A stretch of 52,491 nucleotides of DNA, taken from assembly GCA_027084135.1 (NCBI GenBank), contig JALWLO010000143.1:24523-77013 (forward strand), written 5' to 3'. Under the pieces are notes generated by a model that saw nothing but the letters and a program-made list of their open reading frames with translations, searched no databases and was not told the DNA's origin. This DNA is from Campylobacterales bacterium. Lineage in GTDB: Bacteria; Campylobacterota; Campylobacteria; Campylobacterales; QNZT01. The first letter of the stretch is position 1, and each line of letters begins with the position of its first letter. Shown one piece after another: positions 9,880 to 52,320 of this stretch. Position numbers and translations under genes: made by a program.

Positions 9880-9948
9880 TGCTCACTATCCTTCATCGAT
9901 TTTTAATATGGTTGTGGATTTTACCTCTTTTATCTTTAAGTATCAATT

Positions 9949-9975
9949 AAAATATAGAAAAATTTTCTATATTTT
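9949..9975. repeat. 27-bp perfect AT-rich palindrome
   Basis: The sequence is AAAATATAGAAAA-A-TTTTCTATATTTT, with 13-bp arms. It lies between ridA and rplU. A 12-bp palindrome GCGTTATAACGC lies next to it at 9983-9994. Confidence 0.8.
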
Positions 9976-10013
9976 CGATATAGCGTTATAACGCCGCTTG
10001 GTTGATATGTTAG

Positions 10014-10023
10014 CTAGTACTAA
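10014..10023. repeat. CTAGTACTAA variant of the palindrome, abutting the ridA stop
   Basis: The core TAGTACTA lies directly 3' of the ridA TAG (10024-10026 on the minus strand). Confidence 0.85.
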
Positions 10024-10413: not shown

Positions 10414-10538
10414 CTTTTCCTCTCTCTTATGAAAATAGTTTATTAATCTCAAAATTATACCAAAATTATTTAAATTAAATATTATTTTAAAGTTTCTATT
10501 ATATAATTAGAGTAATCATAAATTGGAGTAGTTAAATC

Positions 10539-11090: not shown

Positions 11091-11127
11091 AGAAAGGGCT
11101 ATTTTTTGCCTTTCTCTTTTTTATTTT
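11090..11127 (+). terminator. rho-independent terminator of the OMP gene, overlapping the galU 3' end
   Basis: GAGAAAGG (11090-11097) pairs with CCTTTCTC (11109-11116) and is followed by TTTTTTATTTT. Confidence 0.65.
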
Positions 11128-14866: not shown

Positions 14867-14870
14867 ATCT

Positions 14871-16121: not shown

Positions 16122-16854
16122 AGATCTCCTCTAGTACGAAGTCCCACCCTTTTGGACCGGGATAGGGCGCCTTTTTAAGCCCCTCTATATCTGCGTCGAT
16201 ATAACTACCGTCATATCTAGGTATCAAAATAGGAATATCCACAACCCTTAGCATATCCAGATCGTTATAACTATCCCCCAAAGCGATACTTCTATAACCC
16301 TTATAGTGCTTTAGTACTAACGATACCGCTTCTCCTTTATCCTGCTTCTCCCCTACCAAATGGTAAAACCTACCGCCTCTAAGCACCTTATAGCCGTTTT
16401 GTTTCGCTATCTCTTTAAAGGCTTCCAGCTTCTCCTCATGACTGCATAAAAAGGGTTCACTATACTCTCTCTCTTTGGCTAAAATCGCCATCTCTCTTGA
16501 AAAGTCCGTTGCCTCCATCACATCCTCAACGCGCATCAATGAGAAGGGCATCAAATCAAACGCTTTTGCATATTTTTGGATAAATGATCTTAACTCCTCA
16601 TAACCGACTCCTAGCTCTATCACTCCACTCTCTAAGCCAAATATCGCCGCACCGTTTTCTACGATAAAGGGTGAGGATATGCCCATCTTCTCTTGCAAGA
16701 GCCGGCACTCTTTTTGGGTTTTAGAGGTTGTATATATAAGGGGAATCGATCTCTTTTTGATAAAGCGAAGCATCGTGGAGGCTTCATCAAAACTGTAGTC
16801 ATGGTGGTTTAAAAGTGTTCCGTCAAGATCGGTAAAGATGATCGTTCGCATCAC
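16111..16854 (-). CDS. HAD-IIB phosphatase, mannosyl/glucosyl-3-phosphoglycerate phosphatase family
   Basis: The 247 aa product has the DLDGTLL nucleophile motif, TTSKT and GDSYNDLDM. It resembles the YedP/MpgP family. Confidence 0.7.
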   Translation of the reverse strand: MMRTIIFTDLDGTLLNHHDYSFDEASTMLRFIKKRSIPLIYTTSKTQKECRLLQEKMGISSPFIVENGAAIFGLESGVIELGVGYEELRSFIQKYAKAFDLMPFSLMRVEDVMEATDFSREMAILAKEREYSEPFLCSHEEKLEAFKEIAKQNGYKVLRGGRFYHLVGEKQDKGEAVSLVLKHYKGYRSIALGDSYNDLDMLRVVDIPILIPRYDGSYIDADIEGLKKAPYPGPKGWDFVLEEIFGV

Positions 16855-18096
16855 CTAAATAAACTTATCTTTGAGTATCCGTTTTCCAAGCTCAACACCG
16901 GGCTGATCGTAACTGTGTATATTTAAAAAGTGACCGGTGAGCGAAGTTAAAAGCTCATAGTAAAATATCAAATACCCGACCTCCATCTCACATACTCTTC
17001 CAAGTGTGATCATATCTGTTACGATCCCCTGCTCTTTGACGCTCTGCATCGTCGCGTCGCATTGTGCGTTGATAAGTTCACTAAAGGTGTGACTGTTGAT
17101 AAAGTCGGTCTTCTCCAAGTGTGGGATAGAGATATTGGGTATCTTGAGATCATTTTGAAAATCCTCAACCTTGATAAATGTCACACTCTTATCTCTCACT
17201 CCCTCGATGATCAGTTGCAAAAAGGAGTGCTGATCAATAGAGCCTATAAGCCCAACGGGAGTCAATCCTACATGCTCACCGTCTCTATTGATCTTTCCGA
17301 GAGACTCTGCCCAAAGCTGGACATACCAGTCATTAAAATAGCTAAATGAGCTTGCGTATGAAAAGAGCACATTTTGCGTGATTTTTCTATTTTTGGCATA
17401 TAGATAGGCTTTTTTGACTATCTCATCCTCTTTTTTTGCAAAAAAGGACTCTTTGAGCATCTTCGCTCCACCAAGGATCTCTCTGACATGATAACCCATG
17501 ATATGAAGCGGTAACAATCCGACAGCACTTAGTACCGAAAATCGACCTCCGACATTCAACGGGATATGAAAAGTAACCAAATCGTTCTCTTTGGCAAATA
17601 TATCAAGCGGAGAGTTCTCATCGGTAATGATAGCAAATCTCTTTCTAAACTCATCACTCTCAAATGTCAAGTGAAATCTATCCATAAGGTACTTGAAGAT
17701 AGAGGTGGTTTCGATGGTACCGCCCGACTTGGAGATAACGATAAAGAAACTCTCACTTAACTCTACACCCTTTAAGTTTCTCTCTATCTCGTTTGGATCG
17801 ACATTTTCTAAAAATAAGAGATTTTTATCCGCTCTATGAGGAAGATCTAGCAGTAGTCTATCAACCGCTTTGGTACCGAGAGATGACCCCCCTATTCCTA
17901 CAACCACTACATTTTTGATGCTGCTAAAATCATACTCTGCACAAAACTCTTCTATAGATGAAATCGTATCCTTATCCTCAGACAGAAAGTAGTATCCGAC
18001 TTCGCCGCTCTCGGCCTCTTCAAAGAGCGCTTCATACGCTTCAGATATATCACTCTCTAAGATTTCACTCTCATAGGTACCCTCGATTTTTACCAT
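16855..18096 (-). CDS. pgi: glucose-6-phosphate isomerase (short bacterial form)
   Basis: The 413 aa product has the GIGGSSLG and ISKSGGTIET signatures. Confidence 0.85.
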   Translation of the reverse strand: MVKIEGTYESEILESDISEAYEALFEEAESGEVGYYFLSEDKDTISSIEEFCAEYDFSSIKNVVVVGIGGSSLGTKAVDRLLLDLPHRADKNLLFLENVDPNEIERNLKGVELSESFFIVISKSGGTIETTSIFKYLMDRFHLTFESDEFRKRFAIITDENSPLDIFAKENDLVTFHIPLNVGGRFSVLSAVGLLPLHIMGYHVREILGGAKMLKESFFAKKEDEIVKKAYLYAKNRKITQNVLFSYASSFSYFNDWYVQLWAESLGKINRDGEHVGLTPVGLIGSIDQHSFLQLIIEGVRDKSVTFIKVEDFQNDLKIPNISIPHLEKTDFINSHTFSELINAQCDATMQSVKEQGIVTDMITLGRVCEMEVGYLIFYYELLTSLTGHFLNIHSYDQPGVELGKRILKDKFI

Positions 18097-25631: not shown

Positions 25632-27989
25632 TTATTGGGCTTCTCTAACACACCTTAGACCGATAGGTTTGGCAAGCGGTATCTCTAACTTTCCGATATC
25701 TCCGATCGACTTCGTTGAACCCTTTTTGATAGGCTCGGCACCATATCTGGTGATGACATATTTGAGTGTAGCGTTTGTTTCATTCCCGTCTCGTGCCAAG
25801 AGTCGTCCGCACGGAGCTTCATACCCTACAAAAAGATGCGCTTGGTTTGTCTTTTTGATAAACTCACTCAACTCCGCCGAAGTTGGATATCTCCAATCAT
25901 CAAAATCGGCATAGTTTAACTTTTGGCAAAAATCTTTTGAGGCGTTTAAGTCTGCTTGAGAATGGATCGCTTTACACGCTTTGTTTGCTTCATTAAACTC
26001 ATTGACCCACATCAGCTTTTTACCGCTACTATCCGTATAAGTTAGCGTTTTCGCTTCTCCTACTTTTCCTAGATTGACGGTAAAAGGTGAAAAGTTGATC
26101 CTATTCTCTGGTCCCCTTACACACTTAAATCCAGCCGGAAATGCAAACTGACTATCGATATATCCGGCAAACGGCTTCAGTGCTGAAGTCAAATTATTGA
26201 AATTTTTATGCTCTGTCCACACAGCCTTTATCGTGCCGTTATCTTCCGATAGGAGTTGGACACAGTGATCTTTCCCAAGACCCATCTTTTTTTGTTCTTG
26301 AACCATCCTCACCATAAAGTAGCTAAGTTCATTTGCCGTTGGAACTCTCCAATCGGTAAAACCTGCATAGGTTGATTTGCTACAAAAAGATTTCATCGCA
26401 CTTTTTGCATCCACTTTCGTGGTACCTTCACCTATAAATAGACAACCTCTACTATGATCTCCACCCTCCGGGATATTTGTATCATCATTTGCCCAAACCA
26501 AACCGTTATCGTGATCTATCACAACCTCTTCGTTTAGTGCACCGAGTTTTTTAACTTCGTAACCACTCTTTTGTCCAACTATTTGTACCACTGTAGAGGC
26601 TTTTGCCTCATTTCCGGCACTATCTTTTGCGCTAAATAACACGGTATAGTAACCAGCTTTTGTTGTATCCACGCTATCTGTCGTCGTCACTTCAACGGAA
26701 GCATTATCCTCCACATCAAATGCCGTTGCGGTCGGTGTTGTATAGTTGGCATCCGTTGCAATGATAAAGTTGCTTTCTACTTTGATGATGGGCGGATATA
26801 TATCGGCTTGATCCATATGATGCGCATCAATATAGAGGGCACCTCTACTCCCTTCAGGTGCATTTACCGCTCCAAATAGGACGACCTTTAACGATTTGGC
26901 TAATGCGTTAAATTTGGTGATATTGCTTTTATCTACGGTCGCTTCAATATACTTGACACCATCCTCCTCTTTTTCAATAAATCCGCTATTTTGCGCTAGT
27001 GTCACTCTATCATCGAAATCTTTGACATAGTGATAGACACCATCTCTCTTGATGATAAAGTCTATACCCATATCTTCCCAGATACCGGATTCATAACCTG
27101 AGACTCTACTATTATCACTATCGATAAATATTTGTGTGCTATTGATATCTGCACCCTCGACTTTGAAGTAAAGATTATTTTCATCACTGGTTACATAGAG
27201 TTTGGTATCGCCGTTTTGCACCAGCGGCTCTATGACGTACCACATCGATGGTTTTGGTTTTACTTCTATCGTTATATGCGCACTCTTTTCATTGCCGTTT
27301 TTATCCGTTACGGTTAGATAGATGGTATGTGTGCCGACGCTAAGAGAGTTAGTACTAAAGCTCTTGTGAGTACTCAGAGGTTTATTCCCCTCTCTCCACA
27401 GATATGACGCTACTTCACCGTCATAGAGTGTATCAAATGTTATGCTATCCCCTTGAACGATCGTGGTACTAGCCACTTGGATCTCTAGTTTCTCATCATT
27501 TCCGCTTAGATGGTTTTTCGCCTCGTTTAAGGAGTAAACTTTTCCTTTATAATCCGGAAGAGCCTTTAATTTCTTTGCCAATTTATTCAACTCACCGTCA
27601 TCAAGCGCCACCATATCCACTTGCTTCGCTATTTCAGGTGTGATCGTTATCCCATTTTGAGGATCTCCGTCTAGATCAAGCGTCAGTAAAAATCTAGCGA
27701 TCTCCGCCCGATCCTCTTTTAACTCTTTATTGTGATCCTCTTTTGTCAATACTTTGGTTGTTTTCAAGAGGTGAGAATTAATATAAAACTTACACTCTTT
27801 TCCTACTTCAAATTTAAACATACCGTCACGATTTGTTGTACCGCTCTCGATACCGCACCTATACTCCAATCCCTCAACCGGAGAATCAACATAATAACCG
27901 GTACCGACTAGAACCTCTTTATCTGAACCACCGCCACATCCAAATAAAACGGCAGATAGTAGTGTTGAAAAAACGACTCTCTTTTTCAT
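25632..27989 (-). CDS. large surface lipoprotein with Ig-like/PKD-like domains and two DUF1566 (Lcl C-terminal)-like modules
   Basis: The 785 aa product has the lipobox VLFGC. It has a PKD-like segment (GTHTIYLTVTDKNGNEKSAHITIEV) and an Ig-like segment (AGYYTVLFSAKDSAGNEAKASTVVQIV). Two modules carry FTDWRVPTANELSYF and FDDWRYPTSAELSEF. Confidence 0.65.
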   Translation of the reverse strand: MKKRVVFSTLLSAVLFGCGGGSDKEVLVGTGYYVDSPVEGLEYRCGIESGTTNRDGMFKFEVGKECKFYINSHLLKTTKVLTKEDHNKELKEDRAEIARFLLTLDLDGDPQNGITITPEIAKQVDMVALDDGELNKLAKKLKALPDYKGKVYSLNEAKNHLSGNDEKLEIQVASTTIVQGDSITFDTLYDGEVASYLWREGNKPLSTHKSFSTNSLSVGTHTIYLTVTDKNGNEKSAHITIEVKPKPSMWYVIEPLVQNGDTKLYVTSDENNLYFKVEGADINSTQIFIDSDNSRVSGYESGIWEDMGIDFIIKRDGVYHYVKDFDDRVTLAQNSGFIEKEEDGVKYIEATVDKSNITKFNALAKSLKVVLFGAVNAPEGSRGALYIDAHHMDQADIYPPIIKVESNFIIATDANYTTPTATAFDVEDNASVEVTTTDSVDTTKAGYYTVLFSAKDSAGNEAKASTVVQIVGQKSGYEVKKLGALNEEVVIDHDNGLVWANDDTNIPEGGDHSRGCLFIGEGTTKVDAKSAMKSFCSKSTYAGFTDWRVPTANELSYFMVRMVQEQKKMGLGKDHCVQLLSEDNGTIKAVWTEHKNFNNLTSALKPFAGYIDSQFAFPAGFKCVRGPENRINFSPFTVNLGKVGEAKTLTYTDSSGKKLMWVNEFNEANKACKAIHSQADLNASKDFCQKLNYADFDDWRYPTSAELSEFIKKTNQAHLFVGYEAPCGRLLARDGNETNATLKYVITRYGAEPIKKGSTKSIGDIGKLEIPLAKPIGLRCVREAQ

Positions 27990-28030
27990 AACATTTAGAC
28001 CTTTTCAAATAAAATTGTGATAATTGTATT

Positions 28031-28082
28031 TTAACCCAAATTTTGCATTAGCCTGCATTATAATTTAAAATTTGGGTTTAAC
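28031..28082. repeat. intergenic palindromic element, long copy R1
   Basis: The sequence is TTAACCCAAATTTTGCATTAGCC..AAAATTTGGGTTTAAC. Its arms are inverted repeats. It shares an exact 16-mer, AAATTTTGCATTAGCC, with copy R2. Confidence 0.75.
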
Positions 28083-28389
28083 GGCTATAAAAAATACAAT
28101 TATTTTAATATCTCACCTCATTTATCGGCATTTTTTCAATAAGTTTTACACTTTTTTAATGATTTTTATCTAAAAAGGAGTCATTCGTAGCAAAAACCCA
28201 CTATTTAGTGTGGCTTTATGTGCAGTGATCCAATAATCTATATTTTCAACTAAATAGAAGTTTTTCAAATGAAACTTAAGTTGCATTGGAGACTATATAT
28301 GATTAAAATAATTTCACTTTTCTTAAGTTGCACTTAACCCTATCTCATAAATTGATACTATAAGACTAAACTTTCTTGCCTATTGCAAC

Positions 28390-28408
28390 CTAAGTTGCAC
28401 CGACTTAG
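28390..28408. promoter_or_regulatory. HAIR-like inverted repeat, candidate heat-shock repressor operator upstream of hsp20
   Basis: The sequence is CTAAGT-N7-ACTTAG. It lies just upstream of the extended -10 TGTAAAAT (28419-28426) and the hsp20 ATG at 28460. Its geometry resembles the HspR operator CTTGAGT-N7-ACTCAAG. Confidence 0.35.
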
Positions 28409-28418
28409 CACATTATCA

Positions 28419-28426
28419 TGTAAAAT
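28419..28426 (+). promoter_or_regulatory. extended -10 promoter element for the hsp20 pair
   Basis: TGTAAAAT lies 34 nt upstream of the ATG. The RBS AAGGAGG is at 28448-28454. Confidence 0.4.
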
Positions 28427-28459
28427 AGCAACAAACAAAGATGCATAAAGGAGGTTAAG

Positions 28460-28903
28460 ATGCTAATCCAAAGATTTGATCCGTTCAAAGAGTTCAATGA
28501 GTTGAGAAAAAGTTTTGAGCAAGTAAGCAGAGCGTTCAATGCCCTGGAAGAGGGAGAGTTACCAAAAGATCTCCAGTTTGTTCCAGCAGTTAATACACGC
28601 GAGGGGGATAAAGCCTACTATATAGAGGTGGATCTTCCCGGAGTGAAAAAAGAGGATATCAAGATAGATGTACATGACAATATCCTCACTGTTAGCGGAG
28701 AGAGAAAGATCAAAGAGGAGAGAAAGGATGATGACTTTTACCGTGTAGAGAGTCTCTATGGCAAATTTGAGAGAAGCTTTACACTTCCAGATGATGTAGA
28801 TAGTGATAAAATTGAGGCAAAAGATGAGAACGGAGTATTGTTGATCACGATACCAAAAGCGGTCAAAGTCGATAAAGGTCCGAGGAAAATTAAAATTAAG
28901 TAA
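28460..28903 (+). CDS. small heat-shock protein, Hsp20/alpha-crystallin family
   Basis: The 147 aa product has alpha-crystallin domain motifs: YYIEVDLPGVKKEDIKIDV, LTVSGERK and GVLLITIPK. Confidence 0.9.
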   Translation: MLIQRFDPFKEFNELRKSFEQVSRAFNALEEGELPKDLQFVPAVNTREGDKAYYIEVDLPGVKKEDIKIDVHDNILTVSGERKIKEERKDDDFYRVESLYGKFERSFTLPDDVDSDKIEAKDENGVLLITIPKAVKVDKGPRKIKIK

Positions 28904-28929
28904 AAATAAAGGAAAAAAAGGAGGGTGCC

Positions 28930-29361
28930 ATGAGCAAAACAAAACAAGAGTTACAAAATGTTGAGAAGAAAGTTGAAAAGGGTATCGTAGAGGGTGTCAA
29001 ACATCTCAAAGAGACACTCTCAAATGTGGCGAGTCATCTGCCGTTTGCAAACTTAGCACACAATAAAAAAACAGATACTTTTACGATAGAGATCGATCTA
29101 CCGGGAGTGAAAAAGAAGGATATCAATGTCAGCATAGAGGGAGATTATCTCACGGTAACTGCAGAGAGAAAGATGCAAGAGGAGGTCAAGAAAGAGGATT
29201 ATTACCTCATGGAAAGTGCTTACGGTAAATATGCTAGAAGCTTCTATCTCTCTGATGATATCGATCGTGACTCGATAGATGCTCGTTTTGAAAACGGTCG
29301 TTTAACGATCACATTTGAAAAAGTACCTGAAAAGAAAAGAAGAGACATTGCAGTAAAATAG
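28930..29361 (+). CDS. small heat-shock protein, Hsp20 family (second paralogue)
   Basis: The 143 aa product contains FTIEIDLPGVKKKDINVSIEGDYLTVTAERK and GRLTITFEK. A strong RBS, AAAGGAGGG, precedes it. Confidence 0.85.
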   Translation: MSKTKQELQNVEKKVEKGIVEGVKHLKETLSNVASHLPFANLAHNKKTDTFTIEIDLPGVKKKDINVSIEGDYLTVTAERKMQEEVKKEDYYLMESAYGKYARSFYLSDDIDRDSIDARFENGRLTITFEKVPEKKRRDIAVK

Positions 29362-29383
29362 GAGAGCTAAGTGATTAGCTCTC
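29362..29383. terminator. bidirectional hairpin terminator between convergent genes
   Basis: The sequence is GAGAGCTAA-GTGA-TTAGCTCTC, a perfect 9-bp stem. It begins immediately after the hsp20 stop. Confidence 0.6.
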
Positions 29384-29393
29384 TTATGAATGA

Positions 29394-29690
29394 CTACTGA
29401 TCATCTCTATAGACATCGGTAATGTCAAAATCATACTCCGGCTCTATCACAGGTATTTTATCAAGCGATTTGGGATCAACCTCTACGGCAGAGAAGTTAT
29501 ACTCATCAGAGTTATAAAACTTCTGCTCTTTTGCATATTTTTTCTCTCGCTCCATCTGCTCTTTGATATGCTTATCTATTTTATTTTTTACTTGATCATT
29601 TTGTCTCTTTATTTGTGTTCTATTGGAGTCGGCATAGGAGAGAGATGAAATCAATATCGTTAAAACGATAGTATAAATCAATTTTTTCAT
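29394..29690 (-). CDS. small secreted protein, unknown function
   Basis: The 98 aa product has a signal peptide ending SYA. The mature part is Lys/Glu-rich. Confidence 0.45.
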   Translation of the reverse strand: MKKLIYTIVLTILISSLSYADSNRTQIKRQNDQVKNKIDKHIKEQMEREKKYAKEQKFYNSDEYNFSAVEVDPKSLDKIPVIEPEYDFDITDVYRDDQ

Positions 29691-29763
29691 AATATAACCT
29701 TATGATTATTATTTTCCTACTGAAATTATACCATAAATATCCAATTTGTGTTATACTCTATGT

Positions 29764-30051
29764 ATGCCGAAAATGAGACTGAACAAAGAAACATTGAAGA
29801 GAGTGCTTCAAAATATAAAACCTCAAAAGAGTATCTGGGGATTTTTAGGAGTCATACTCTTTTTTATTGCACCGGAAATTGTGGCATTTATCTACGGAGG
29901 GGATATCACAAACTTTTGTGAAGCCAAACTCAAATGCGACCTACCTTATGCCGAGCAATATCTCTACGAAAATATCGAGATGTTTTTCGGTGAGGGGAGT
30001 TGGTTAAACCTCACGCTAGGTTTTGTCTTTCTGATTTGGCTCTTTTTTTAA
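29764..30051 (+). CDS. small membrane protein, unknown function
   Basis: The product has two hydrophobic segments. I chose the ATG at 29764. The track ORF starts at TTG 29746, which lies inside a TGTTATACT extended -10-like element. Confidence 0.4.
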   Translation: MPKMRLNKETLKRVLQNIKPQKSIWGFLGVILFFIAPEIVAFIYGGDITNFCEAKLKCDLPYAEQYLYENIEMFFGEGSWLNLTLGFVFLIWLFF

Positions 30052-30095
30052 TAAACAATAGACTATAATCACCCAAAAACTCAAGGGTATGTTAG

Positions 30096-42609: not shown

Positions 42610-42840
42610 ATGGGTCAGATAACTATTTATATCAATAATGAACTAGAAAAGAGAATAAAAGAGTTGGCTTCATCTCAAAACACTTCTCTTAGCAAATATA
42701 TTTCAACCGTTTTAGAGAAAAATATCAGTAACAAGTGGGATCCAAAAGTGAAAGATTTAGCAGGTAGTTGGGGCGATTTTCCCACAGCCCAAGAGATAAG
42801 AGAGAGCAGTGCTACCGATATAAAGAGAGAAGAGTTTTAG
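42610..42840 (+). CDS. vapB: VapB-type antitoxin (ribbon-helix-helix-like)
   Basis: This 76 aa gene immediately precedes and abuts the PIN gene. A TATAAT lies at 42575-42580. Confidence 0.7.
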   Translation: MGQITIYINNELEKRIKELASSQNTSLSKYISTVLEKNISNKWDPKVKDLAGSWGDFPTAQEIRESSATDIKREEF

Positions 42841-43233
42841 ATGTATCTCCTTGACACAAACAGCGTTATCTACTTTTTTAAAGGGATGGGGCAACTCTCT
42901 AAAAATCTATTTTCACACTCTCCAAAAGATATATTTATCCCGACTATCGTACTCTACGAACTCCAAGTAGGTATCGCAAAATCACATAGCCCAAACAAGA
43001 GAAAAGAGCAGTTAAATCTACTCTTGGAACAGGTTCAAATCGTAGAGTTTGGCACGAAAGAGGCAAAAGAGGCAGCAGACATCATGGCTACATTGGAAAA
43101 ACTCGGAACTCCCATCGGACCTATGGATACCTTGATAGCCGGTTGCGCAAAAGCCAACAATCTAACCTTAGTAACCCACAATACCAAAGAGTTTCAAAAG
43201 GTAGAGGGGTTAGCGGCGGTTGATTGGTTTTAA
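42841..43233 (+). CDS. vapC: VapC PIN-domain ribonuclease toxin
   Basis: The 130 aa product starts MYLLDTNSVIYF with the first acidic residue. Later acidic residues are in EL..G, MDTLIAG and THNTKEF. Confidence 0.85.
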   Translation: MYLLDTNSVIYFFKGMGQLSKNLFSHSPKDIFIPTIVLYELQVGIAKSHSPNKRKEQLNLLLEQVQIVEFGTKEAKEAADIMATLEKLGTPIGPMDTLIAGCAKANNLTLVTHNTKEFQKVEGLAAVDWF

Positions 43234-44162
43234 CCCTCATAAACCTCTTTGATCGTATAAGGCTTCTTATTCTGTGCTCCGTAGTATGTCCTGATGATAA
43301 GCTCCGCCAAAAATCCCGTAACAACAAGTATGATACCGATAAATGTCAGCATCACGCCGAGTATCAAAAGCGGTCTCGTACCGATGCTATATCCAAGTAG
43401 CTTTAGTACAAACATATAGAAGTTGATAGCCATTCCGGCAAGAAATGTGATGATCCCCATCGTACCGAAGAGGTGCATCGGCTTTTGGCGATACTTCTCC
43501 AAAAAGAGCATCAACAGCAGATCGCTTACCACCCGAAAAGTTCTGCCCAGTCCATACTTGCTCTCACCGTGGACCCTCGGATGGTGCTTGACATTGACCT
43601 CCGTTATCCTCGCTCCATTTAGACTCGCAAGTACCGGTATGAAACGATGTAGTTCACCGTAGAGCTCCAGATTTTTCGCAACATCTCTCTTAAACAGTTT
43701 CAAAGTACAGCCGTAGTCATGCACATAGACACCTGTTAGTTTTCTGATAAGCTTGTTTGCGATTTTACTCGGTATCTTCCTTAGAAGCATCCCATCTTGA
43801 CGCTTTAGCCTTCTGCCGGCGACCACATCCCAATCACCCTCTTTGAGAGTTTTTATCATCATCGGTATATCGCTCGGATCATTTTGCAGATCGCCGTCGA
43901 TGGTGGCGATAAGCTCCCCTTCAGCCATATCGATACCGGCTGCCATAGCGGTGGTCTGCCCATAGTTTCGCTTGAAAACGACCACCTTCGTTCGATCATC
44001 GGCAAACTCTTTTAGCTTCTCTACTGTTTTATCCGTTGAGCCATCATCTACTACTATCAGCTCATAATCTATCCCCTTTAAAGCCTCTCTTATCGCATCG
44101 TACAGAGGCTTTACATTATCCTCTTCATTCATCATAGGTACTACAACCGACAGCTCTCTCAT
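43230..44162 (-). CDS. polyprenyl-phosphate glycosyltransferase, GT2 (ArnC/GtrB/DPM1-like)
   Basis: The 310 aa product contains VVVPMMNEEDNV, ELIVVDDGSTDKT and DGDLQNDP, plus two C-terminal TM helices. Confidence 0.85.
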   Translation of the reverse strand: MRELSVVVPMMNEEDNVKPLYDAIREALKGIDYELIVVDDGSTDKTVEKLKEFADDRTKVVVFKRNYGQTTAMAAGIDMAEGELIATIDGDLQNDPSDIPMMIKTLKEGDWDVVAGRRLKRQDGMLLRKIPSKIANKLIRKLTGVYVHDYGCTLKLFKRDVAKNLELYGELHRFIPVLASLNGARITEVNVKHHPRVHGESKYGLGRTFRVVSDLLLMLFLEKYRQKPMHLFGTMGIITFLAGMAINFYMFVLKLLGYSIGTRPLLILGVMLTFIGIILVVTGFLAELIIRTYYGAQNKKPYTIKEVYEG

Positions 44163-45691
44163 CTCTCAATCACCTTTATCAAAACTACTCCTCTTTTGCT
44201 ATAAATCGTCTCATATTTTTTAAAGTATTTTAGTCTATTGCTCTTAATCAAAGCACACTCCCCCGCTTTCGCATCTCTTCTTTTGACAATTTTTCTCGCA
44301 TAAAAGCTAAAGCTCGGTACATTGATATGCTCCATCACGATCTTGCATTGAAGCTCTCTTGCTTTGAGCGCCGCCTCCTTGATCGGTGTCTGCTTCGCTT
44401 GAGCCACCACCGGCAAGATTATGAGATTTATCACCCCGCTAAAAAGTAATCCTATAACAACTATCTTAAAATATATCTCTCTTTTACTCATCCCCACAAG
44501 CAGAGTGCCCAAGATAGCCCCTATCAAGCCCAAAAAGTAGCGCCGATCAAACAGCCCAAGCGACTCTCGTACGATCACCTTCGCATACGCATCTCTTATC
44601 TGCTCCACCCCGCCAAACTGTAGATAAAGCGGTAGTACCAAAAGCAAAATATAGAGTACTAAGGGAGCGATATAAAAGTTCCCGCTACGCTCTATCACCT
44701 CCCCCCTCAATGCCGTCAAAACAAACAACCCGGTATAACCGTAGATGACATAGTGCGGCAGTTTCGTACCCGATAGCGAAAAAAACAAAAAGACAAAGCC
44801 GAACCATATCACCGCATAGAGCGTCAAATCATCTTTGAGTCTCTTTTTCAGCGCATCAAAGAGAGCTCTTAGGTAGATAGTACTAAAGGGTAAAAGTCCG
44901 ATGATTAAAACCGGGATATAGTAAAACATCGAGCCGTAATGCCCCTCCATCGGTCCCTTAAAGCGCTCCACATTGTGCTTCAAGAAAAAGCCCTCAATAA
45001 ACTTTTGCCCCTGGGCGTGGTACTCAGCCAAGTACCAAGGAAGAGTCACCGCCAAAAATATCACGATACCGATAGGATTTAACAAAGCGCTCCACCAAGC
45101 ACCAAACTCCCTTTTGGATAGGAAAAATATCCCGCTTACCACAAAGGGTATCAACACTGCAATCGGTCCTTTTGTCAGTACGCCAAGCCCCATAAAGAGG
45201 TATGTTAGATAGATAAACTTTCTCTCTCTATTTTCATAATAGAGATAAATATTAAAGAGCGTAAGAGCGATGAAGAGATTTAGGAGTGCGTCGGCGATAG
45301 AGGCTTTGGCGATGATCGTTATCTGAAGCAGTACACTCATCATAAATGCACCAAGAAGCGCCCTCTTCTCATCGGCATATCTCTTTACAAAGCGATAGAG
45401 AACATAAACCCACAGCGTCGCCGCTACCGCCGAAGGAAACCTAACGGCAAACTCATTTAAACCGAATATCTTCGTACTAAGCGCCTGAAACCAGTAGATG
45501 AGTATCGGCTTGTCAAACCTAAGCTCTCCGTTTAGATAGGTCGTGATATAGTCTCCGCTTTTGAGCATCTCTCTTGTGGCTTCGCTAAACGCCCCCTCAT
45601 CCAGATCAAAGAGCGCAATCCAACCAAGCGTGAGATAGAAACTCAAAAATATCCCCGCAAATAGCGCTATCCTCAAAGCAAATATACTCAC
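44159..45691 (-). CDS. ArnT/PMT-like (GT39/GT83) membrane glycosyltransferase, copy 1
   Basis: The 510 aa product is polytopic. It has the N-terminal loop motif DLDEGAFSEATREMLKSGDY..FDKPILIYW. Confidence 0.8.
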   Translation of the reverse strand: MSIFALRIALFAGIFLSFYLTLGWIALFDLDEGAFSEATREMLKSGDYITTYLNGELRFDKPILIYWFQALSTKIFGLNEFAVRFPSAVAATLWVYVLYRFVKRYADEKRALLGAFMMSVLLQITIIAKASIADALLNLFIALTLFNIYLYYENRERKFIYLTYLFMGLGVLTKGPIAVLIPFVVSGIFFLSKREFGAWWSALLNPIGIVIFLAVTLPWYLAEYHAQGQKFIEGFFLKHNVERFKGPMEGHYGSMFYYIPVLIIGLLPFSTIYLRALFDALKKRLKDDLTLYAVIWFGFVFLFFSLSGTKLPHYVIYGYTGLFVLTALRGEVIERSGNFYIAPLVLYILLLVLPLYLQFGGVEQIRDAYAKVIVRESLGLFDRRYFLGLIGAILGTLLVGMSKREIYFKIVVIGLLFSGVINLIILPVVAQAKQTPIKEAALKARELQCKIVMEHINVPSFSFYARKIVKRRDAKAGECALIKSNRLKYFKKYETIYSKRGVVLIKVIER

Positions 45692-46290
45692 CCCTCTATC
45701 CTCTCTCTAAATCTCTTTTCGTACAGCCAGTAGCTAAAGAGTGAGCCGATAAATGCACCTGCCACCACATCGCTAAGATAGTGTCTGTCTATCACCACTC
45801 TGCTAAGAGCCACAAGCAGGCTCAGCGAAAAAAGAGCGACTCCAAAGCGCCTATATAAGAGCCAAACCGCCGTACTAAAGGCAAAGATAGTGGTCGAGTG
45901 TCCCGATGGAAAGGAGGTCATATCGTGCACGACATGAAAAAAGTCAAAGCCGTACAATCCCTCATGCAAAAAGTGCTCCGGTCTATATCTCCCGCCGACG
46001 ATCTTAAAAACCCAAATCAGTATCCCCGAAAGCGCCACGCTCAAAAAGAGGTAGAGCGCCTTTTGGGAGGCTTGAGAGTCTCTATTTTTGTTGAGTAGAT
46101 AGATAAGAAGTGTCGGGATGAGATAGTATTGAGACTCTCCCAAAAAGGTAATATCCTTGAAAAACGCCCGAACCCCGCTCTCTTTGATACTATAAAAGTA
46201 GCTTGCCAACTCCCTATCAAGCGCAAGATAGGAGTAAACCACAAACAGCGCCGACACGACTCCGACTATAACCCATCTCTTACTCTTCAA
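45688..46290 (-). CDS. PAP2-family lipid phosphatase, copy 1
   Basis: The product has the three PAP2 motifs: KIVGGRYRP, PSGH and SRVVIDRHYLSD. Confidence 0.85.
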   Translation of the reverse strand: MKSKRWVIVGVVSALFVVYSYLALDRELASYFYSIKESGVRAFFKDITFLGESQYYLIPTLLIYLLNKNRDSQASQKALYLFLSVALSGILIWVFKIVGGRYRPEHFLHEGLYGFDFFHVVHDMTSFPSGHSTTIFAFSTAVWLLYRRFGVALFSLSLLVALSRVVIDRHYLSDVVAGAFIGSLFSYWLYEKRFRERIEG

Positions 46291-46936
46291 GCCTCGCCTC
46301 TTTTTTGTAGATGAGATAATATACCAGCTTTAAGATTATAAAATTGACAATGATGGCAAAGAGTACATCACTCAAAAAGTGCGCCCCTTGAACCACACGG
46401 GTAAGTGCCATCAAAGCCACAAATGAGAGGCTTAGTACTAAGATAAGCCGATTTCTAAACACATAAGCCAACGCCAAAAAGAACATCGCCCCTCCTACAT
46501 GTCCGCTGATAAATGAACAGTTGTGGTCGCACTTGCCGCTAAAGTCATAGTATGGAGTAAACTTATGCTCTCCTCCAAAAAATTTACTATTTACGGGTCT
46601 TACTCTCCCGCTATACTCTTTAAAAACCAGATTTGTCACCACTGCGGGACCCGTTATGAGATAAACAAGCAAAAAAATAGCGGCTTTTTTATCGAGATAT
46701 TTGCCTATTTTTCTCCCTTTATAGGTATATATCAAAAGTGCGAGAAGTACGATCACCGTCACTATCGTCAGCGGCACAATCACATCATGCATAAACTCAA
46801 AAATCGGCTCATGCTTCAAAAAAAACTCCCCATCTCTGTAAAACAACTTACTTACAAAGATATCTAGCTCCGGAAAGCATGCAAATACCACCGCCACAGC
46901 TACGGAAAAGAGTATAAAAAGTCTCCCAAACATCAA
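46280..46936 (-). CDS. PAP2-family lipid phosphatase, copy 2
   Basis: The product has the PAP2 motifs KEYSGRVRP, SGH and TRVVQGAHFLSD. Confidence 0.85.
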   Translation of the reverse strand: MMFGRLFILFSVAVAVVFACFPELDIFVSKLFYRDGEFFLKHEPIFEFMHDVIVPLTIVTVIVLLALLIYTYKGRKIGKYLDKKAAIFLLVYLITGPAVVTNLVFKEYSGRVRPVNSKFFGGEHKFTPYYDFSGKCDHNCSFISGHVGGAMFFLALAYVFRNRLILVLSLSFVALMALTRVVQGAHFLSDVLFAIIVNFIILKLVYYLIYKKEARLEE

Positions 46937-48387
46937 TACCCCTTAAACCCGACGCAGTGAAAGAGATAGTAGGTTCTATTGAAATCGCTATATAACGGCA
47001 CGACCACTTTTCCTACCTTTCCCACCTTCTCAAAGTACGGTAAAAGATCGCCCATCTCATCCAAAGTGCGAAAGAGTAGAAAATCCTCACCCTTTTTCTC
47101 ATTTAAGTCTCTATCCATATGGTATTGATTCTCCATCTCATGGCGGGGATTGAATATATATGTCTTAGTACTAAGGTAATAATCCGCCTCAGCCACATCG
47201 GCTCTTCTTGTAGCTAAAAGTGTAGTATTTGGATATCTCTCTCTCCATATATCGCCGATCTGATGAAGAGCATCTCTCCAGCCAAGCACCCTTTTATAGG
47301 GGTCACTTTTTCTAGTCAGCTCTATATGAAGGGCGTCAGCTATCTGATGGTAGTTATAAAAAACGACGCCAAGCAGAGTGTGCAAAAGGATAGAGAGCCA
47401 AACCAGCCACACTTTGCCCTTTAGTACCAAATAGGCAACGACCAAGATAGTAGCGGCGATATAGGTCGGTGCCGCCCAGTTGGCAAACGAGCGGCTAAGG
47501 AAGCTTAGCACCATGATAAACCCAAGCATCACAATCGCAAACAAAAAGAGTATCAACCCCCTCTCATCCCTTAAAAACTCCCTATCTCTCAAAAGGATAT
47601 ACCAAAAAGCCCCAAACAAAATAGGTCCAAAGACTATAAACTGCGCTCCGAAAAACTCAAAAAATTTATTTGGATGTAGCCAGCTATCCTCTATGTGCGA
47701 AATCTGCTTGGTATGGACAAAAGAGATAAAGTCATTGTTGTAATTCCACCAGAGATTTGGCAAAAAGAGCACAAAAGCTATCAAGATAGCGGTGTAGAGT
47801 TTCGTGCTTCTAAAATAGAGGCGATATTTTGGCATGAGTACTAAGGTTAGTACGACGCTTACCAAAAAGAGTATAAAGTTATATTTACTCAAAAGCCCGA
47901 AGCCCGAAGCCACTCCCGCAAATATCCAATCCGACCATCTATCATACCGAATCGCTCTGATAAAGAAGTAAAAAGCCGCCGACCAAAAGAGCAACAAAAC
48001 GGTATCGGTTGAGATGATCATACTCGAGAGCCAAACAGACGGCAGGGTAAAAAATGTGAGAGCCGAATAGAAGGCAACTCTCGGGTTAAAGAGCTCTTTG
48101 GCAATGAGATAGATAAAGAGTGTCGTGATGGGGTATGTAAGCTCTGCCCCAAGCTTAATAGCAAAGATGGAATCTCCGAATAGTTTGGTCGTAAGAGCTA
48201 TCAAGAGTGAGAGCATCGGGGGTTTTGAGTAGTAGCCCAAATCCAGATGCTTCGCCCAGTTGTAGTAGTAGGCTTCGTCAAAGTAGAGATCACTCTTCAT
48301 ATCGCCAAGAACCAAGAGTCTATAAAGCCAGATGATAGCCACGACCATAAAGAGTAGCGTTCCCCACTCCCCCTCTCTAATCCGCAT
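46933..48387 (-). CDS. ArnT/PMT-like (GT39/GT83) membrane glycosyltransferase, copy 2
   Basis: The 484 aa product is polytopic. It has the N-terminal motif YFDEAYYYNWAKHLDLGYYSKPPM. Confidence 0.8.
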   Translation of the reverse strand: MRIREGEWGTLLFMVVAIIWLYRLLVLGDMKSDLYFDEAYYYNWAKHLDLGYYSKPPMLSLLIALTTKLFGDSIFAIKLGAELTYPITTLFIYLIAKELFNPRVAFYSALTFFTLPSVWLSSMIISTDTVLLLFWSAAFYFFIRAIRYDRWSDWIFAGVASGFGLLSKYNFILFLVSVVLTLVLMPKYRLYFRSTKLYTAILIAFVLFLPNLWWNYNNDFISFVHTKQISHIEDSWLHPNKFFEFFGAQFIVFGPILFGAFWYILLRDREFLRDERGLILFLFAIVMLGFIMVLSFLSRSFANWAAPTYIAATILVVAYLVLKGKVWLVWLSILLHTLLGVVFYNYHQIADALHIELTRKSDPYKRVLGWRDALHQIGDIWRERYPNTTLLATRRADVAEADYYLSTKTYIFNPRHEMENQYHMDRDLNEKKGEDFLLFRTLDEMGDLLPYFEKVGKVGKVVVPLYSDFNRTYYLFHCVGFKGY

Positions 48388-49297
48388 CTTTGCCTTCCTC
48401 TTTTAAAAGTTTTGCCCAAAGATATGTCAAAGCTTCACCTGCAATAGTGATCAGCCTATAGATAATAGCCGCAGCTAGTACTAGCTCCTCTCTTATACCC
48501 GCCATTCCCGGTATCAATAGGATATAGATACTCTCTCTCACTCCAAGACCACCCGGAGCTCCCGGCAATACAAATCCAAACAGCCAAGCGATAAGGGCGA
48601 TAAAGAGCATCTCAAAAAATTGCGTCGTATCCATCTCCACCGACAAAAAGAGTTTAAATACGAAAACAAAGAGTGAGGCAGATATGAGCAAAAAGATCGT
48701 GTGATAAAGTAGTACTAAGAGTATCGTACCCGGATCGAAATGCTTTTTTAGCCCAAATCTACCCCTTCCAAAATATAAAATTGCTCCGACTGTTGCTATC
48801 ATTGAGAGAAACAGCGCTACCAAAACGCTATTTGCAATCTCAAATCCAAAGAGTGAAAAGCTAAAATTGACAAAAAAAGTACCTACAAATAGCAAAAGCA
48901 GGGCACTAAAGAGCATGATAAAAACTTCAAGTGTGTTTGAGAGTAGGATATTTTTATGAGTTGTATGCTCTTTATCTATCAAAGCGTGTCTGCCGAGAAA
49001 GTGAAAAACATTTCCGGGAAGATACTTAAAGATCACACTTGTGAGATAGGCACTAAAGACATCTCTCTTGAAAGGCTTTTTTGAGAGCATCTCAAGCAGA
49101 CGCTTCCACGAGTATGCTAAAAAAAAGTAACTGAGTGAAAATATCAAAGAGAACAGTATAAACTTAACGATCCAGCTAGTGTCATAGCGTTCAACCACTC
49201 TTGTAAAGTCAAGCTTTGTGACAAGATAGGCTAAAAAGATAAAGGATAGAAGGACAGCGCCCCTACCGAAATAGCTTGCTAACTCTCTAATCGCCAT
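48377..49297 (-). CDS. UPF0104 / lysyl-PG-synthase-TM-like flippase-type membrane protein
   Basis: The 306 aa product has about 8 TM segments and the [11 protein letters not shown] motif typical of this family. The function is inferred from context. Confidence 0.5.
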
Positions 49298-50279
49298 TGA
49301 AGTATAAGAGTGCGGAGCCCCAAGTTAAACCGCCGCCGAATGTATCAAGAAGCAGGAGGTCGCCGTTTTTTATCTTTCCATCTTCGTACCAATTATTTAG
49401 TGCCATCGGTATAGAAGCGGCAGAGGTGTTTCCATACTTTTCAACCGTTAGTACCACTCTATCTTCACTCATACCCAACTTTTTCGCCACCGCACTGATG
49501 ATCCTATAGTTTGCTTGGTGAGGTACAAACCAATCTATATCTTCACTTTTGATATCGTTATTTTTCAATATCTCAAAAACATCTTGCGTCAATGTATTGA
49601 CTGCCAGTTTAAAGGTCTCATTTCCTTTCATTTTAAGATATTGTAATCCATTTTTTAAAACATCTTTAGAACAAGGATTTCTACTACCACACGCTTCAGT
49701 CACCAAAAAGTCTTGATACTCTCCATCGCTTGATGATTTCACATCCAAGATGGATCTGCTTTTATCATCCGTCGCACCTATGATAGCAGCTCCGGCACCG
49801 TCTCCAAATAGCACACAAGTCGTTCTATCGTTATAGTCGACGATGGAGCTCATCTTCTCCGCACCGATAATCAGCACATGTTTTCGCATACCGGACTCTA
49901 TCATCGATTTGGCGATATTGAGTGCATATACAAAACCGCTACACGCCGCACTGATATCGAAAGCCATCGCACCCTTTATACCAAGCTTATCTGCCACTAC
50001 ACAGGCGGTTGATGGCATACAGAAGTAGTCCGGAGTGATCGTAGCGCATATAATCGCGTCCACTTCATCTCTTGAGATACCGGCTCTATCGATGGCGACC
50101 TTTGCGGCTTCATACGCCATATCGCTTGTGTATTCGTCATCTCTTGCTAGATACCTGCTCTTTATACCGGTTCTCTGCACGATCCACTCGTCACTCGTAT
50201 CGACCATCTTTTCAAGATCGCTGTTGGTGAGTTTTTTCGAGGGGATATATGCACCTATCGATTTCAGTGACGCAAACAA
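49287..50279 (-). CDS. fabH: 3-oxoacyl-ACP synthase III
   Basis: The 330 aa product has the active-site [10 protein letters not shown], plus HQANYRI and GNTSAASIP. It has a TTG start after AAGGAAGAG. Confidence 0.92.
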
Positions 50280-50291: not shown

Positions 50292-51287
50292 CTATTTTGA
50301 ATATTTTACTATATTTTTCGTTATATCACTATTGATATCTGACTCAACAAAGTTGATCGCTTGATAGATTGCGTTTTTGATAGCTTTTGGATTGCTTTTA
50401 CCGTGACATATGATCGCGCATCCATCTATCCCGATAAGCGGAGCGCCGCCATACTCGGCATAATCCATCTGTTTCTTTAAAAGTTTAAAGACTCTTCTCA
50501 TCAGTAGTGCGCCAGTGAGGGCTGTCGGAGATTTTTTGATATTTTGTTTGATCATCTTAGAGATAGAGCTTGCAACACCCTCACTCGCCTTTAGTACGAT
50601 ATTACCGGTAAATCCATCGCATACGATCACATCGACACTTCCGTTAAAGATATCGCTTCCCTCTACATTGCCGACAAATGAGGGAAGCGCTTTGAGAAGT
50701 TTAAAAGCCTCTTTGGTAAGTTCGTTACCTTTTCCCTCCTCTTCGCCGTTTGCAAGAAGCCCTACTCTGATATTCTCTTTTTTGAGTACATCCTTGAGGT
50801 ATGCTTCTCCCATGATAGCAAATTGAAAGAGATGCTCGGGTTTGCAGTCGGTATTTGCACCCACATCTAGTACTAAGCTATTTGCACCCGTTTGAGTCGG
50901 CATGAGTGTCGCGATGGCGGGTCTAAGCACCCCTTCAACTCTACCTATGCGAAGTGTTGCCAGACTCATGGTCGCACCGCTATGACCGGCACTCACAACT
51001 GCGTCAGCTTCACCGTTTCTCACAAGATCGACCGCTTTGTATATCGTTGAGTTTTTTCTTTTTAATACTTCAGTAGCGCTCTCATCCATCCCAAATAGAT
51101 CATCGCACTCTACGATATCGATATATTTGGCAACTCTCTTTGGTATACGATGGGCAAATGTCGACTCTTTGCCGACAAGTATAGCGTTAAACTTCTCTTT
51201 TCTCTTTTTCAGCGCGTGGACTACACCGTCAACAATCGGAAGAGGACCAAAGTCCCCACCCATTGCATCTACTGCTATTTTTTTCAT
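50292..51287 (-). CDS. plsX: phosphate acyltransferase PlsX
   Basis: The 331 aa product contains [12 protein letters not shown] and GFTGNIVLK. Confidence 0.92.
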
Positions 51288-51454: not shown

Positions 51455-51805
51455 TTACTCCTTCATTTCTTTACATTTATTACAGTAGTGATAATCACTC
51501 TTATATGAGCTTATCTCACTATCAAAAATATAGTCAAGATCCATAAATCCTCCATGCATCTCGACGATATCTATCTCATCTCCCCGGTAAAAGCCGTCAA
51601 TCACTCTGAGAGAGAGATCATCATCAACACTTTGACGATACTCATCTCCACAGCTATCACAGGTGGTCTCAAATGAGCCTTTGATACTCATCTTAAGCTC
51701 TACGGCTCCCCCACTCTCTCTAAAAGTGCCGCTACACTCCATCTCATCTCTATTGAGTGAAAAGGGTGTTGCGGTTTTGGGTACCTTTCTAAAAGCTATT
51801 TTCAT
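51455..51805 (-). CDS. DUF177 / YceD family protein
   Basis: The product has the Cys pairs CDSCGDEY and YHYCNKCK, and the conserved position upstream of rpmF. I chose the ATG at 51805. The track uses TTG 51832, which overlaps ndk. Confidence 0.75.
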   Translation of the reverse strand: MKIAFRKVPKTATPFSLNRDEMECSGTFRESGGAVELKMSIKGSFETTCDSCGDEYRQSVDDDLSLRVIDGFYRGDEIDIVEMHGGFMDLDYIFDSEISSYKSDYHYCNKCKEMKE

Positions 51806-51818: not shown

Positions 51819-52232
51819 TTATAATACCTCAATATCGCTAAAGAAATACTTTATCTCTCTCTTCGCACTCTCCGGTGAATCGCTACCGTGAACCGCATTT
51901 GCGTCGATGCTCTCGGCAAAGTCAGCTCTGATCGTTCCCGGAGCCGCCTCTTTCGGATTTGTAGCACCCATGAGCTCTCTATTTTTAGCGATGGCATCTT
52001 CACCCTCAAGCACCATCACGACAACCGGTCCACTTGTCATAAACTCAACAAGATCCTTAAAAAAAGGTCTCTCTTTATGCTCCGCATAAAATCCACCTGC
52101 CGTCTCTTCATCTAGCTTTATCTTTTTCATTGCGGCTATTCTTAACCCGTTTGACTCAAATCTATCGATGATTTTTCCTATGACACCTTTGCTAACCGCA
52201 TCAGGTTTTATGATAGAAAGTGTTTGTTGCAT
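51819..52232 (-). CDS. ndk: nucleoside diphosphate kinase
   Basis: The product contains [13 protein letters not shown] and the active site NAVHGSDS. I chose the ATG at 52232, after GGAGAG. Confidence 0.92.
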
Positions 52233-52320
52233 ATCGCTCTCCAATTGAAAAAATTATTATAAAGGCGGTGGAGTATATCAAAATAAAGATATAACGAAGT
52301 TTAAATCGGGAAAATAAGCA

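Follow-up and report, generated by a model that had tools for sequence, protein, structure and literature searches.

The phosphates of lipid A serve as binding sites for cationic peptides and divalent cations, and they carry a sizeable phosphorus cost. To our knowledge, experimental evidence for their replacement by carboxylate sugars comes only from Aquifex and a few alphaproteobacteria. The present analysis concerns a 52,491-nucleotide stretch from a hydrothermal-vent Campylobacterota bacterium (assembly GCA_027084135.1, contig JALWLO010000143.1, positions 24,523 to 77,013 of the forward strand; the whole stretch is termed the window), in which six membrane-enzyme genes, O1 to O6, lie on the minus strand directly 3' of fabH. 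In the accepted order for Rhizobium, dephosphorylation by LpxE/LpxF is followed by glycosylation by RgtF/RgtD at the periplasmic face (PMC9393093). The genes rgtE-lpxE-rgtF are contiguous in Oligotropha carboxidovorans, the lipid A of which bears two galacturonic acid (GalA) residues (PMC7663294), and rgtF adjoins lpxE in Mesorhizobium loti (PMC7795004). In Aquifex pyrophilus lipid A, GalA replaces both phosphates, and aq_1706 of Aquifex aeolicus is a validated lipid A 1-phosphatase, LpxE (PMC6581854); the lipid A genes of Aquificae are affiliated phylogenetically with Epsilonproteobacteria (PMC3879981). Judged by their sequences, the six genes of the window are proposed to encode an inner-membrane pathway, expressed constitutively, in which sugars take the place of the 1- and 4'-phosphates of lipid A, a reading to which we assign a probability of roughly 0.6.

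Reading from fabH, O1 (48377..49297) encodes a 306-residue flippase-like protein of the MprF type (PF03706), O2 (46933..48387) a 484-residue glycosyltransferase of the GT-C fold (PMT_2, "GT39-like"), O3 (46280..46936) a 218-residue LpxF-like PAP2 protein, O4 (45688..46290) a 200-residue PAP2 protein of the LpxE/undecaprenyl-diphosphatase type, O5 (44159..45691) a 510-residue GT-C of the ArnT family (GT83-like), and O6 (43230..44162) a 310-residue GT2 of the ArnC/GtrB type. An earlier sequence-only reading of this DNA had called O1 a UPF0104 flippase-like protein, O2 and O5 ArnT-like transferases, O3 and O4 PAP2 proteins, and O6 an ArnC-like GT2, and had described overlaps of 4 to 11 nt among the six genes 3' of fabH. 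Its domain calls were all reproduced (PF03706 for O1, PMT_2 for O2 and O5, PAP2 for O3 and O4, and GT2 for O6). With starts taken from the longest open reading frames (ORFs), the successive overlaps from fabH/O1 to O5/O6 were read as 11, 11, 4, 11, 4, and 4 nt, with the genes where that reading had placed them; choosing the ATG one codon further downstream would cut the O2/O3 overlap to 1 nt. Its designation of the two ArnT-like transferases and the two PAP2 proteins as "copy 1" and "copy 2" of one another did not hold, as these are distant subfamilies (O2 and O5, 23% identity over 82 aa; O3 and O4, 29% over 153 aa). From gene order, protein families, conserved catalytic motifs, and co-occurrence patterns, we infer a pathway that would begin at the cytoplasmic face, where O6 would transfer a sugar (galacturonic or glucuronic acid being the likeliest) from its UDP-linked form to undecaprenyl phosphate; O1 would then carry the lipid-linked sugar across to the periplasmic face. 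There, O3 would remove the 4'-phosphate and O2 would glycosylate the 4' position; O4 would remove the 1-phosphate and O5 would glycosylate the 1 position.

The window system is best read as belonging to the known LpxE/LpxF plus RgtD/RgtF/RgtE kind, as a compact member from Campylobacterota and not as a new kind. Like the systems of Rhizobium leguminosarum, M. loti, and Oligotropha, it comprises two PAP2 proteins, two ArnT-like GT-Cs, and one ArnC-like GT2 donor synthase (corresponding to LpxE/LpxF and RgtD/RgtF/RgtE), places phosphatase beside transferase, and is suggested to use a uronic-acid donor. It differs from the Rgt systems in being packed into one compact putative operon, in belonging to Campylobacterota, in including an MprF-type flippase-like gene, and in being fused to plsX-fabH. 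The likeness to RgtD/RgtF/RgtE is indirect, as it is drawn from an Aquifex locus used as proxy and from published synteny (PMC7663294, PMC7795004). This proxy, aq_1706 with its surroundings, was retrieved with a sequence fragment of 6EBU (loci are numbered with an L; here L086). In A. aeolicus (AE000657.1; L086:10001-12652), lpxE overlaps galU and galU overlaps a gene for a PMT_2 GT-C, and the three look like one operon joining dephosphorylation, UDP-glucose supply, and a transferase. The galU product at this locus is 49% identical to the GalU encoded in the window. The Aquifex GT-C aligned with O5 at 32% identity over 309 aa (E=1e-39), as compared to a marginal match with O2 over 90 aa only (E=4e-8). 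Two features recall the window: LpxE of Aquifex is the closest solved structure to the O4 clade, and the GT-C encoded two genes after lpxE resembles O5. In contrast to the window, the Aquifex pathway is spread over several loci, galU separates phosphatase from transferase, the lpxE locus has no PF03706 gene, and no LpxF is recognized there (PMC7663294). A. pyrophilus has kept lpxE-galU alone at this site.

More distant systems share parts of this design. The Arn pathway of enterics and Cupriavidus (ArnC, ArnT, and ArnE/F) has the same carrier-lipid logic, with O6 resembling ArnC, O5 resembling ArnT, and O2 predicted to adopt an ArnT-like fold. However, O5 and O6 score far below the equivalog cut-offs, ArnA, ArnB, and ArnD are lacking, the zinc-site His residues are not kept in O5, and the flippase candidate of the window is of the MprF type instead of the EmrE type of ArnE/F; the window module also has phosphatases, so that sugar is proposed to replace phosphate instead of decorating it. 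The Francisella enzymes FlmF1/FlmF2-FlmK and LpxE/LpxF likewise combine PAP2 phosphatases, an ArnT-like transferase, and ArnC-like synthases, and mannose can sit at the dephosphorylated 4' position (PMC2233673). Unlike the window module, the Francisella system has dispersed genes, depends on a deacetylase, and relies on a single transferase for its two sugars; the 1-phosphate is retained, and galactosamine is attached to it. The presence of O1 is reminiscent of HexSDF of Clostridioides difficile, GpgSDF of Pseudomonas aeruginosa, and PplT/UPF0104, in which a stand-alone protein with an MprF flippase domain is encoded together with a lipid glycosyltransferase and is the proposed flippase (PMC10128005, PMC12713373, bioRxiv 10.1101/2022.03.11.483950). 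HexSDF and GpgSDF differ from the window in acting on diacylglycerol or phosphatidylglycerol lipids, in including a deacetylase, and in having no GT-C or PAP2 partners; flipping itself has been demonstrated in none of the three. The survey of PplT also describes fusions to GT-A domains in archaea (bioRxiv 10.1101/2022.03.11.483950).

For the pair proposed to act at the 4' position, the NCBIfam LpxF model was the top match in 16 of 16 members of the O3 clade (best E=1e-49), followed by the model "PAP2 family lipid A phosphatase." O3 has all three PAP2 motifs (KX6RP, SGH, and SRX5HX3D). Across the clade (n=16), the first and third motifs and two Cys residues are invariant; O3 and every Campylobacterota member retain SGH, and three proteobacterial members have SGD (His to Asp) in its place. 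These features make O3 an LpxF-like PAP2 protein and a candidate lipid A 4'-phosphatase. O2 matched PMT_2 at 122 bits, and its first-loop motif DEAYY/SKPP is invariant, as are residues D37, E38, and K55. At the sequence level, O2 had no match in the PDB, and it scored only 33 bits against the ArnT hidden Markov model. The top PDB fold matches of its AlphaFold2 model (mean predicted local distance difference test score [pLDDT] 86) were the ArnT structures 5EZM and 5F15 (template modeling score 0.63-0.64), ahead of oligosaccharyltransferase/PglB and protein mannosyltransferases. We propose O2 as a GT-C with a predicted ArnT-like fold that would serve as transferase for the lipid A 4' position.

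Within the pair proposed for the 1 position, the motifs KX6RP, PSGH, and SRX5HX3D are all invariant in the O4 clade, and the best PDB match of the clade profile is A. aeolicus LpxE (6EBU; E=1e-10, near full length). NCBIfam matches of this clade are generic (UppP, PgpB, and LpxE), the LpxE model matching only four of the eight members. O4 is proposed as a candidate lipid A 1-phosphatase. O5 aligned with ArnT of Cupriavidus metallidurans (5EZM) over residues 9-328 (E=1e-31). In this alignment, O5 keeps equivalents of D55, K85, D158, R270, and Y345, which we take to be the first-loop Asp and the ligands of the undecaprenyl phosphate (Und-P) phosphate group in the Cupriavidus enzyme; D stands in place of E84, and K and N stand in place of the zinc-site residues H265 and H267. 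By its sequence, O5 is best classed as an ArnT family member and not as an orthologue of the 4-amino-4-deoxy-L-arabinose (Ara4N) transferase, and it is our candidate for the transferase acting on the lipid A 1 position.

The distribution of these genes was followed in a scan of a genome collection with an O2 profile, which gave 80 loci, with further loci from exact-protein look-ups; pairings were counted in the 75 loci with enough downstream sequence. A PAP2 gene lies directly 3' of the O2 homologue in 33 of the 75, and in 32 of these it is of the O3 or F type. Such F-type genes after O2 occur in loci from Campylobacterota and from alpha-, beta-, and gammaproteobacteria. GT2 is found in 48 loci and an O5-type GT-C in 45. 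The genes for O4 and O5 are adjacent in eight loci (L003, L004, L007, L024, L081, L083, L085, and L089), and both are absent from L084, a close relative of the window organism with the order fabH-O1-O2-PAP2F-GT2. Because of this conserved adjacency and joint loss, O2 is paired with O3 and O4 with O5. The full set GT2-GTC1-PAP2E-GTC2-PAP2F is present in L034, L035, L058, L067, and L079, and Zoogloea-type loci have the order PAP2E-GT2-GTC1-GTC2. Among cultured strains, Nitrosophilus alvini (L089) has all six genes, Nitratiruptor tergarcus (L088) has O2-PAP2-GT2-PF03706, and Hydrogenimonas sp. SS33 (L090) has O2-ugd-GT2-PF03706. In metagenome-assembled genomes (MAGs) of alphaproteobacteria, single ORFs next to an O2 homologue contain two PAP2 domains (L025:4289-6247, L027:12652-15039, L029:1625-3589, and L033:11418-13013). 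The O3 and O4 profiles each give strong scores on these ORFs, one domain being O3/LpxF-like and the other O4/LpxE-like, and by these scores the ORFs represent a natural fusion of the two phosphatase types. Because of the Aquifex GT-C match and the published rgt-lpxE synteny, we infer by analogy that O4/O5 would act at position 1 and O3/O2 at position 4'. The sugar-for-phosphate logic of the sequence-only reading (one donor synthase, two phosphatases, and two transferases) gains support from the O2-O3 and O4-O5 pairings, from L084, from the PAP2 fusions, from the similarity of O3 to the LpxF model, from the match of O4 to Aquifex LpxE, and from the Aquifex operon.

O6, the candidate Und-P sugar synthase, matched GT2 at 117 bits and aligned over its full length with ArnC structures (E=3e-48), then with GtrB. 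It has two C-terminal transmembrane helices and the DXD-type motifs DDGSTD and DGDLQND. Identity to the GT2 proteins of other Campylobacterota modules is 66-83%, and identity to those of modules with ugd or a UDP-glucuronate 4-epimerase-like gene is 68-74%. Hydrogenimonas modules have a UDP-glucose 6-dehydrogenase gene between O2 and the next module gene. Sulfuricurvum modules encode a short-chain dehydrogenase/reductase whose best PDB match, 5U4Q (E=1e-79), is deposited as a dTDP-glucose 4,6-dehydratase; its best functionally named relatives are the UDP-glucuronate 4-epimerase of Bacillus cereus (6ZL6, E=1e-58) and MoeE5, both of which outscore GalE and UDP-glucuronate decarboxylases by a wide margin. 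None of the modules examined has ArnA, ArnB, or deacetylase genes beside it. Since sister modules carry a ugd or epimerase-like gene and no Arn amino-sugar genes, the most likely donor is a uronic acid, galacturonic or glucuronic, and probably GalA. Ara4N was considered and rejected as the likely donor, with no ArnA/ArnB/ArnD neighbors in any module and scores far below the equivalog cut-offs. The galU gene of the window lies 32 kb from the operon. In a Hydrogenimonas MAG, an O2-type GT-C and a UDP-glucose dehydrogenase are read through as one 900-aa ORF (L014:9947-12646), which may reflect either a genuine fusion or an error of assembly or frame.

The predicted flippase link is the new part of the system. 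O1 passed the Pfam gathering threshold for PF03706 over its full length (56.7 bits; cut-off 33.4) and has approximately seven hydrophobic segments by hydropathy; the pLDDT of its AlphaFold2 model is 86. The motifs YxPGN and GAPGGxGxRE are invariant among O1 homologues, and a profile of these homologues matched the flippase domain of solved MprF structures (E=0.002). In Campylobacterota modules with a visible 3' end, a PF03706 gene is found 3' of GT2 (L009, L010, L014, L024, L053, L088, L089, and L090), the exception being L013, in which a 271-aa ORF without family call occupies this place. The window clade has a HIT gene or vapC at the post-GT2 position and has its PF03706 gene, O1, between fabH and O2 instead. 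BLAST gave no significant similarity between O1 and the PF03706 proteins of other Campylobacterota modules, and the O1 group and the post-GT2 group gave a weak full-length profile match (hhalign probability 43%); simple relocation of a copy of the post-GT2 gene was rejected as the origin of O1 on these two results. A GT2-PF03706 fusion in Zoogloea-type loci was likewise ruled out, the ORFs being long but without an N-terminal domain. Either two divergent PF03706 members were recruited to one role, or O1 belongs with the phospholipid genes. As a tentative extension of the former, the flippases still missing from periplasmic lipid A glycosylation, those that move polyprenyl-phosphate uronic acids, may be PF03706 proteins of the MprF/PplT type, with two highly divergent lineages recruited at different module positions. 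Many vent Campylobacterota, and many beta- and gammaproteobacteria with the same module, would in that case make phosphate-free, uronic-acid-capped lipid A constitutively as their normal envelope lipid, tied transcriptionally in the window clade to fatty-acid and phospholipid initiation.

The alternative that survives best concerns O1 and is, in our judgment, somewhat unlikely: O1 would be a general phospholipid translocator of the plsX-fabH operon, its adjacency to the glycosyl module would be incidental, and the sugar carrier would be flipped by another protein. The position of O1 directly 3' of fabH in five of five clade members fits a translocator of this kind, as does the missing BLAST similarity to module-linked PF03706 proteins elsewhere in Campylobacterota, and in Escherichia coli PplT interacts with enzymes of phospholipid synthesis and is encoded together with them (bioRxiv 10.1101/2022.03.11.483950). 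However, the clade that has O1 is the one without the other PF03706 type at the module 3' end, where it has a HIT gene or vapC, and a PF03706 gene follows GT2 in nearly all other Campylobacterota modules (not in L013), which suggests that the function is required.

Several results weigh against phosphate replacement by the six-gene pathway as a whole. In addition to the BLAST result for O1, which could belong functionally to plsX-fabH instead, three proteins fall well short of the equivalog cut-offs of the models that they match: O3 against LpxF (94 bits over full length; cut-off 400), O5 against ArnT (171 bits; cut-off 567), and O6 against ArnC (194 bits; cut-off 529). The top NCBIfam matches of O4 are undecaprenyl-diphosphatases, not LpxE. 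Hydrogenimonas modules have no PAP2 gene, and neither a ugd nor an epimerase gene is present in the window. The sequencing runs that contain the locus are DNA metagenomes only, none being RNA, and our literature search found no report on the lipid A of vent Campylobacterota.

An acceptor other than lipid A is unlikely, although the substrate assignments all come from homology and context: another envelope molecule would be glycosylated after dephosphorylation, e.g., a phosphate on Kdo or core, a phospholipid-derived glycolipid, or a lipoprotein. Passages on the relatives RgtA, RgtB, and RgtC describe action on core sugars (PMC9393093, PMC7663294), PMT_2 enzymes include protein mannosyltransferases, and O1-type proteins are proposed to flip phospholipids or glycolipids in other systems (PMC10128005, PMC12713373). 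The phosphatases nevertheless point to lipid A, with the two lipid A phosphatase models ranking first and second for the O3 clade and a validated lipid A 1-phosphatase nearest to the O4 clade. The Aquifex counterpart operon comes from an organism group whose lipid A bears exactly such a modification, and lptF/G is found close to the module in Nitratiruptor, Nitrosophilus, L007, and one or more Sulfuricurvum loci, as is uppS in the first two.

Decoration without dephosphorylation, as in the Arn and Lgm systems, would have O5, and perhaps O2, place sugar on the lipid A phosphates in the manner of ArnT, LgmB, and FlmK, with one or both PAP2 proteins acting elsewhere, e.g., in recycling of undecaprenyl diphosphate (Und-PP, C55-PP) or dephosphorylation of phosphatidylglycerol phosphate. 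It would account for the retention in O5 of all ArnT residues that bind Und-P and acceptor, for undecaprenyl-diphosphatases as the best curated matches of the O4 clade, for the multifunctional C55-PP phosphatase activity of LpxE enzymes themselves (PMC6581854), and for Hydrogenimonas modules that work without a linked PAP2. We consider it very unlikely, since the GT-C reaction yields Und-P rather than Und-PP and therefore makes a diphosphatase unnecessary, each PAP2 type is linked to a single GT-C type, the two being gained or lost together, O3 is specifically LpxF-like, sister modules have uronic-acid genes but no amino-sugar genes (ArnA/B or deacetylase), and uronic acids are so far known in glycosidic linkage in place of the phosphate (PMC7663294).

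If replacement of both phosphates by sugars is the true function, this chemistry would be widespread in vent Campylobacterota and many other Pseudomonadota, the module would be portable and composed of two separable halves, each a phosphatase plus a transferase, and a candidate for the flippase step would be supplied. Natural variants with one half or with two occur in cultured strains (N. tergarcus, N. alvini, and Hydrogenimonas sp. SS33), which makes the hypothesis directly testable.

Upstream of O1, the minus strand carries ndk (nucleoside diphosphate kinase; 51819..52232, PF00334, ATG at 52232), which is the first gene of a putative 11-gene operon, a yceD-like gene (DUF177; 51455..51805), the L085 homologue of which has a weak PF02620 match, rpmF (ribosomal protein L32; 51293..51451, PF01783), plsX (phosphate acyltransferase; 50292..51287, TIGR00182, 397 bits, above cut-off), and fabH (beta-ketoacyl-ACP synthase III; 49287..50279, TIGR00747, 460 bits), which ends 11 nt within O1. 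All of these genes share one strand, and every gap from the ndk-yceD junction on is shorter than 15 nt. The O1 ATG agrees with the N termini of O1 homologues, and GA-rich stretches resembling Shine-Dalgarno sequences lie 5' of the starts of O2 to O6. Because the genes are packed without gaps, O1 to O6 are probably transcribed together with ndk-yceD-rpmF-plsX-fabH and hence with the phospholipid and fatty-acid initiation genes. Consensus scans, which are weak evidence, placed a promoter-like site (TTGATA-17-AATAAT, minus strand, 52253..52281; 10 of 12 consensus positions, the best in the region) and a terminator-like hairpin of the preceding ferredoxin gene (minus strand, 52348-52326) upstream of ndk only; match counts in the promoter and terminator scans, including terminator-like matches within the 9-kb block, did not exceed those in shuffled sequence. 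At its 3' end, the putative operon is bounded by a convergent vapBC toxin-antitoxin pair on the plus strand (42610..43233; PIN/VapC, 124 bits), with vapC and O6 overlapping by 4 nt at their stops. A HIT-domain gene stands in this place in L003, L084, and L085, and the vapBC pair was probably inserted in the window lineage.

The order fdx-ndk-yceD-rpmF-plsX-fabH-O1-O2 onward is kept in L003, L083, L084, and L085, with O1 identities of 36-40%, and DNA of the locus also occurs in several vent metagenome runs and on two independent metagenome contigs from hydrothermal vents. The gene arrangement is not due to chance, because it recurs on independent contigs and in these four other species-level relatives. 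The claim of the sequence-only reading that the module is fused to the phospholipid and fatty-acid operon thus stands for the window and four relatives but is narrower than it appeared: the fusion is restricted to one lineage, and the 11-nt fabH/O1 overlap is peculiar to the window genome, with gaps of 7-16 nt in the relatives. The main implication of the fusion would be constitutive expression alongside envelope lipid synthesis. Elsewhere, the module lies 3' of lptF/G-truA in L007, Sulfuricurvum L024, Nitratiruptor, and Nitrosophilus, the latter two having uppS and glmU further upstream, and 3' of hemH in Hydrogenimonas. Recent horizontal acquisition of the module was considered and rejected, as its GC content of 0.42-0.45 against approximately 0.41 for the window is no compositional anomaly.

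Rfam and tRNA scans of the window returned no matches, and the stretches 27990-30095 and 9462-10538 contain no ORF of at least 150 aa. A small polysaccharide-type cluster on the minus strand (3275-9461), with GC content down to 0.35-0.39, encodes an AsnB-like amidotransferase, a GT4, a hexapeptide acetyltransferase, and two proteins of approximately 400 aa without family match. On the same strand, 25632-27989 encodes a 785-aa protein with a bacterial Ig-like surface domain and an Lcl C-terminal domain. The block at 11099-18096, also on the minus strand, encodes GalU, a sucrose-phosphorylase-like GH13, glucosyl-3-phosphoglycerate synthase, glycerate 2-kinase, a protein of the mannosyl/glucosyl-3-phosphoglycerate phosphatase family, and glucose-6-phosphate isomerase, a compatible-solute-like set that suggests synthesis of glucosylglycerate. 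The palindromic 10-mer TTAGTACTAA has 18 exact copies in the 52.5 kb (e.g., at 170, 3180, 9565, 12096, 16311, 19505, 23651, 27349, 32617, 32629, 32745, 35389, 36112, 40408, 41339, 46432, and 47165), or 37 with one mismatch allowed as compared to 2.6 expected, and its core TTAGTAC occurs 66 times as compared to 5.8 expected. The motif was absent from all loci of other organisms compared, closest relatives included. Its copies lie in coding and intergenic DNA alike, and it resembles a lineage-specific highly iterated palindrome or a motif of the DNA-uptake-sequence kind.

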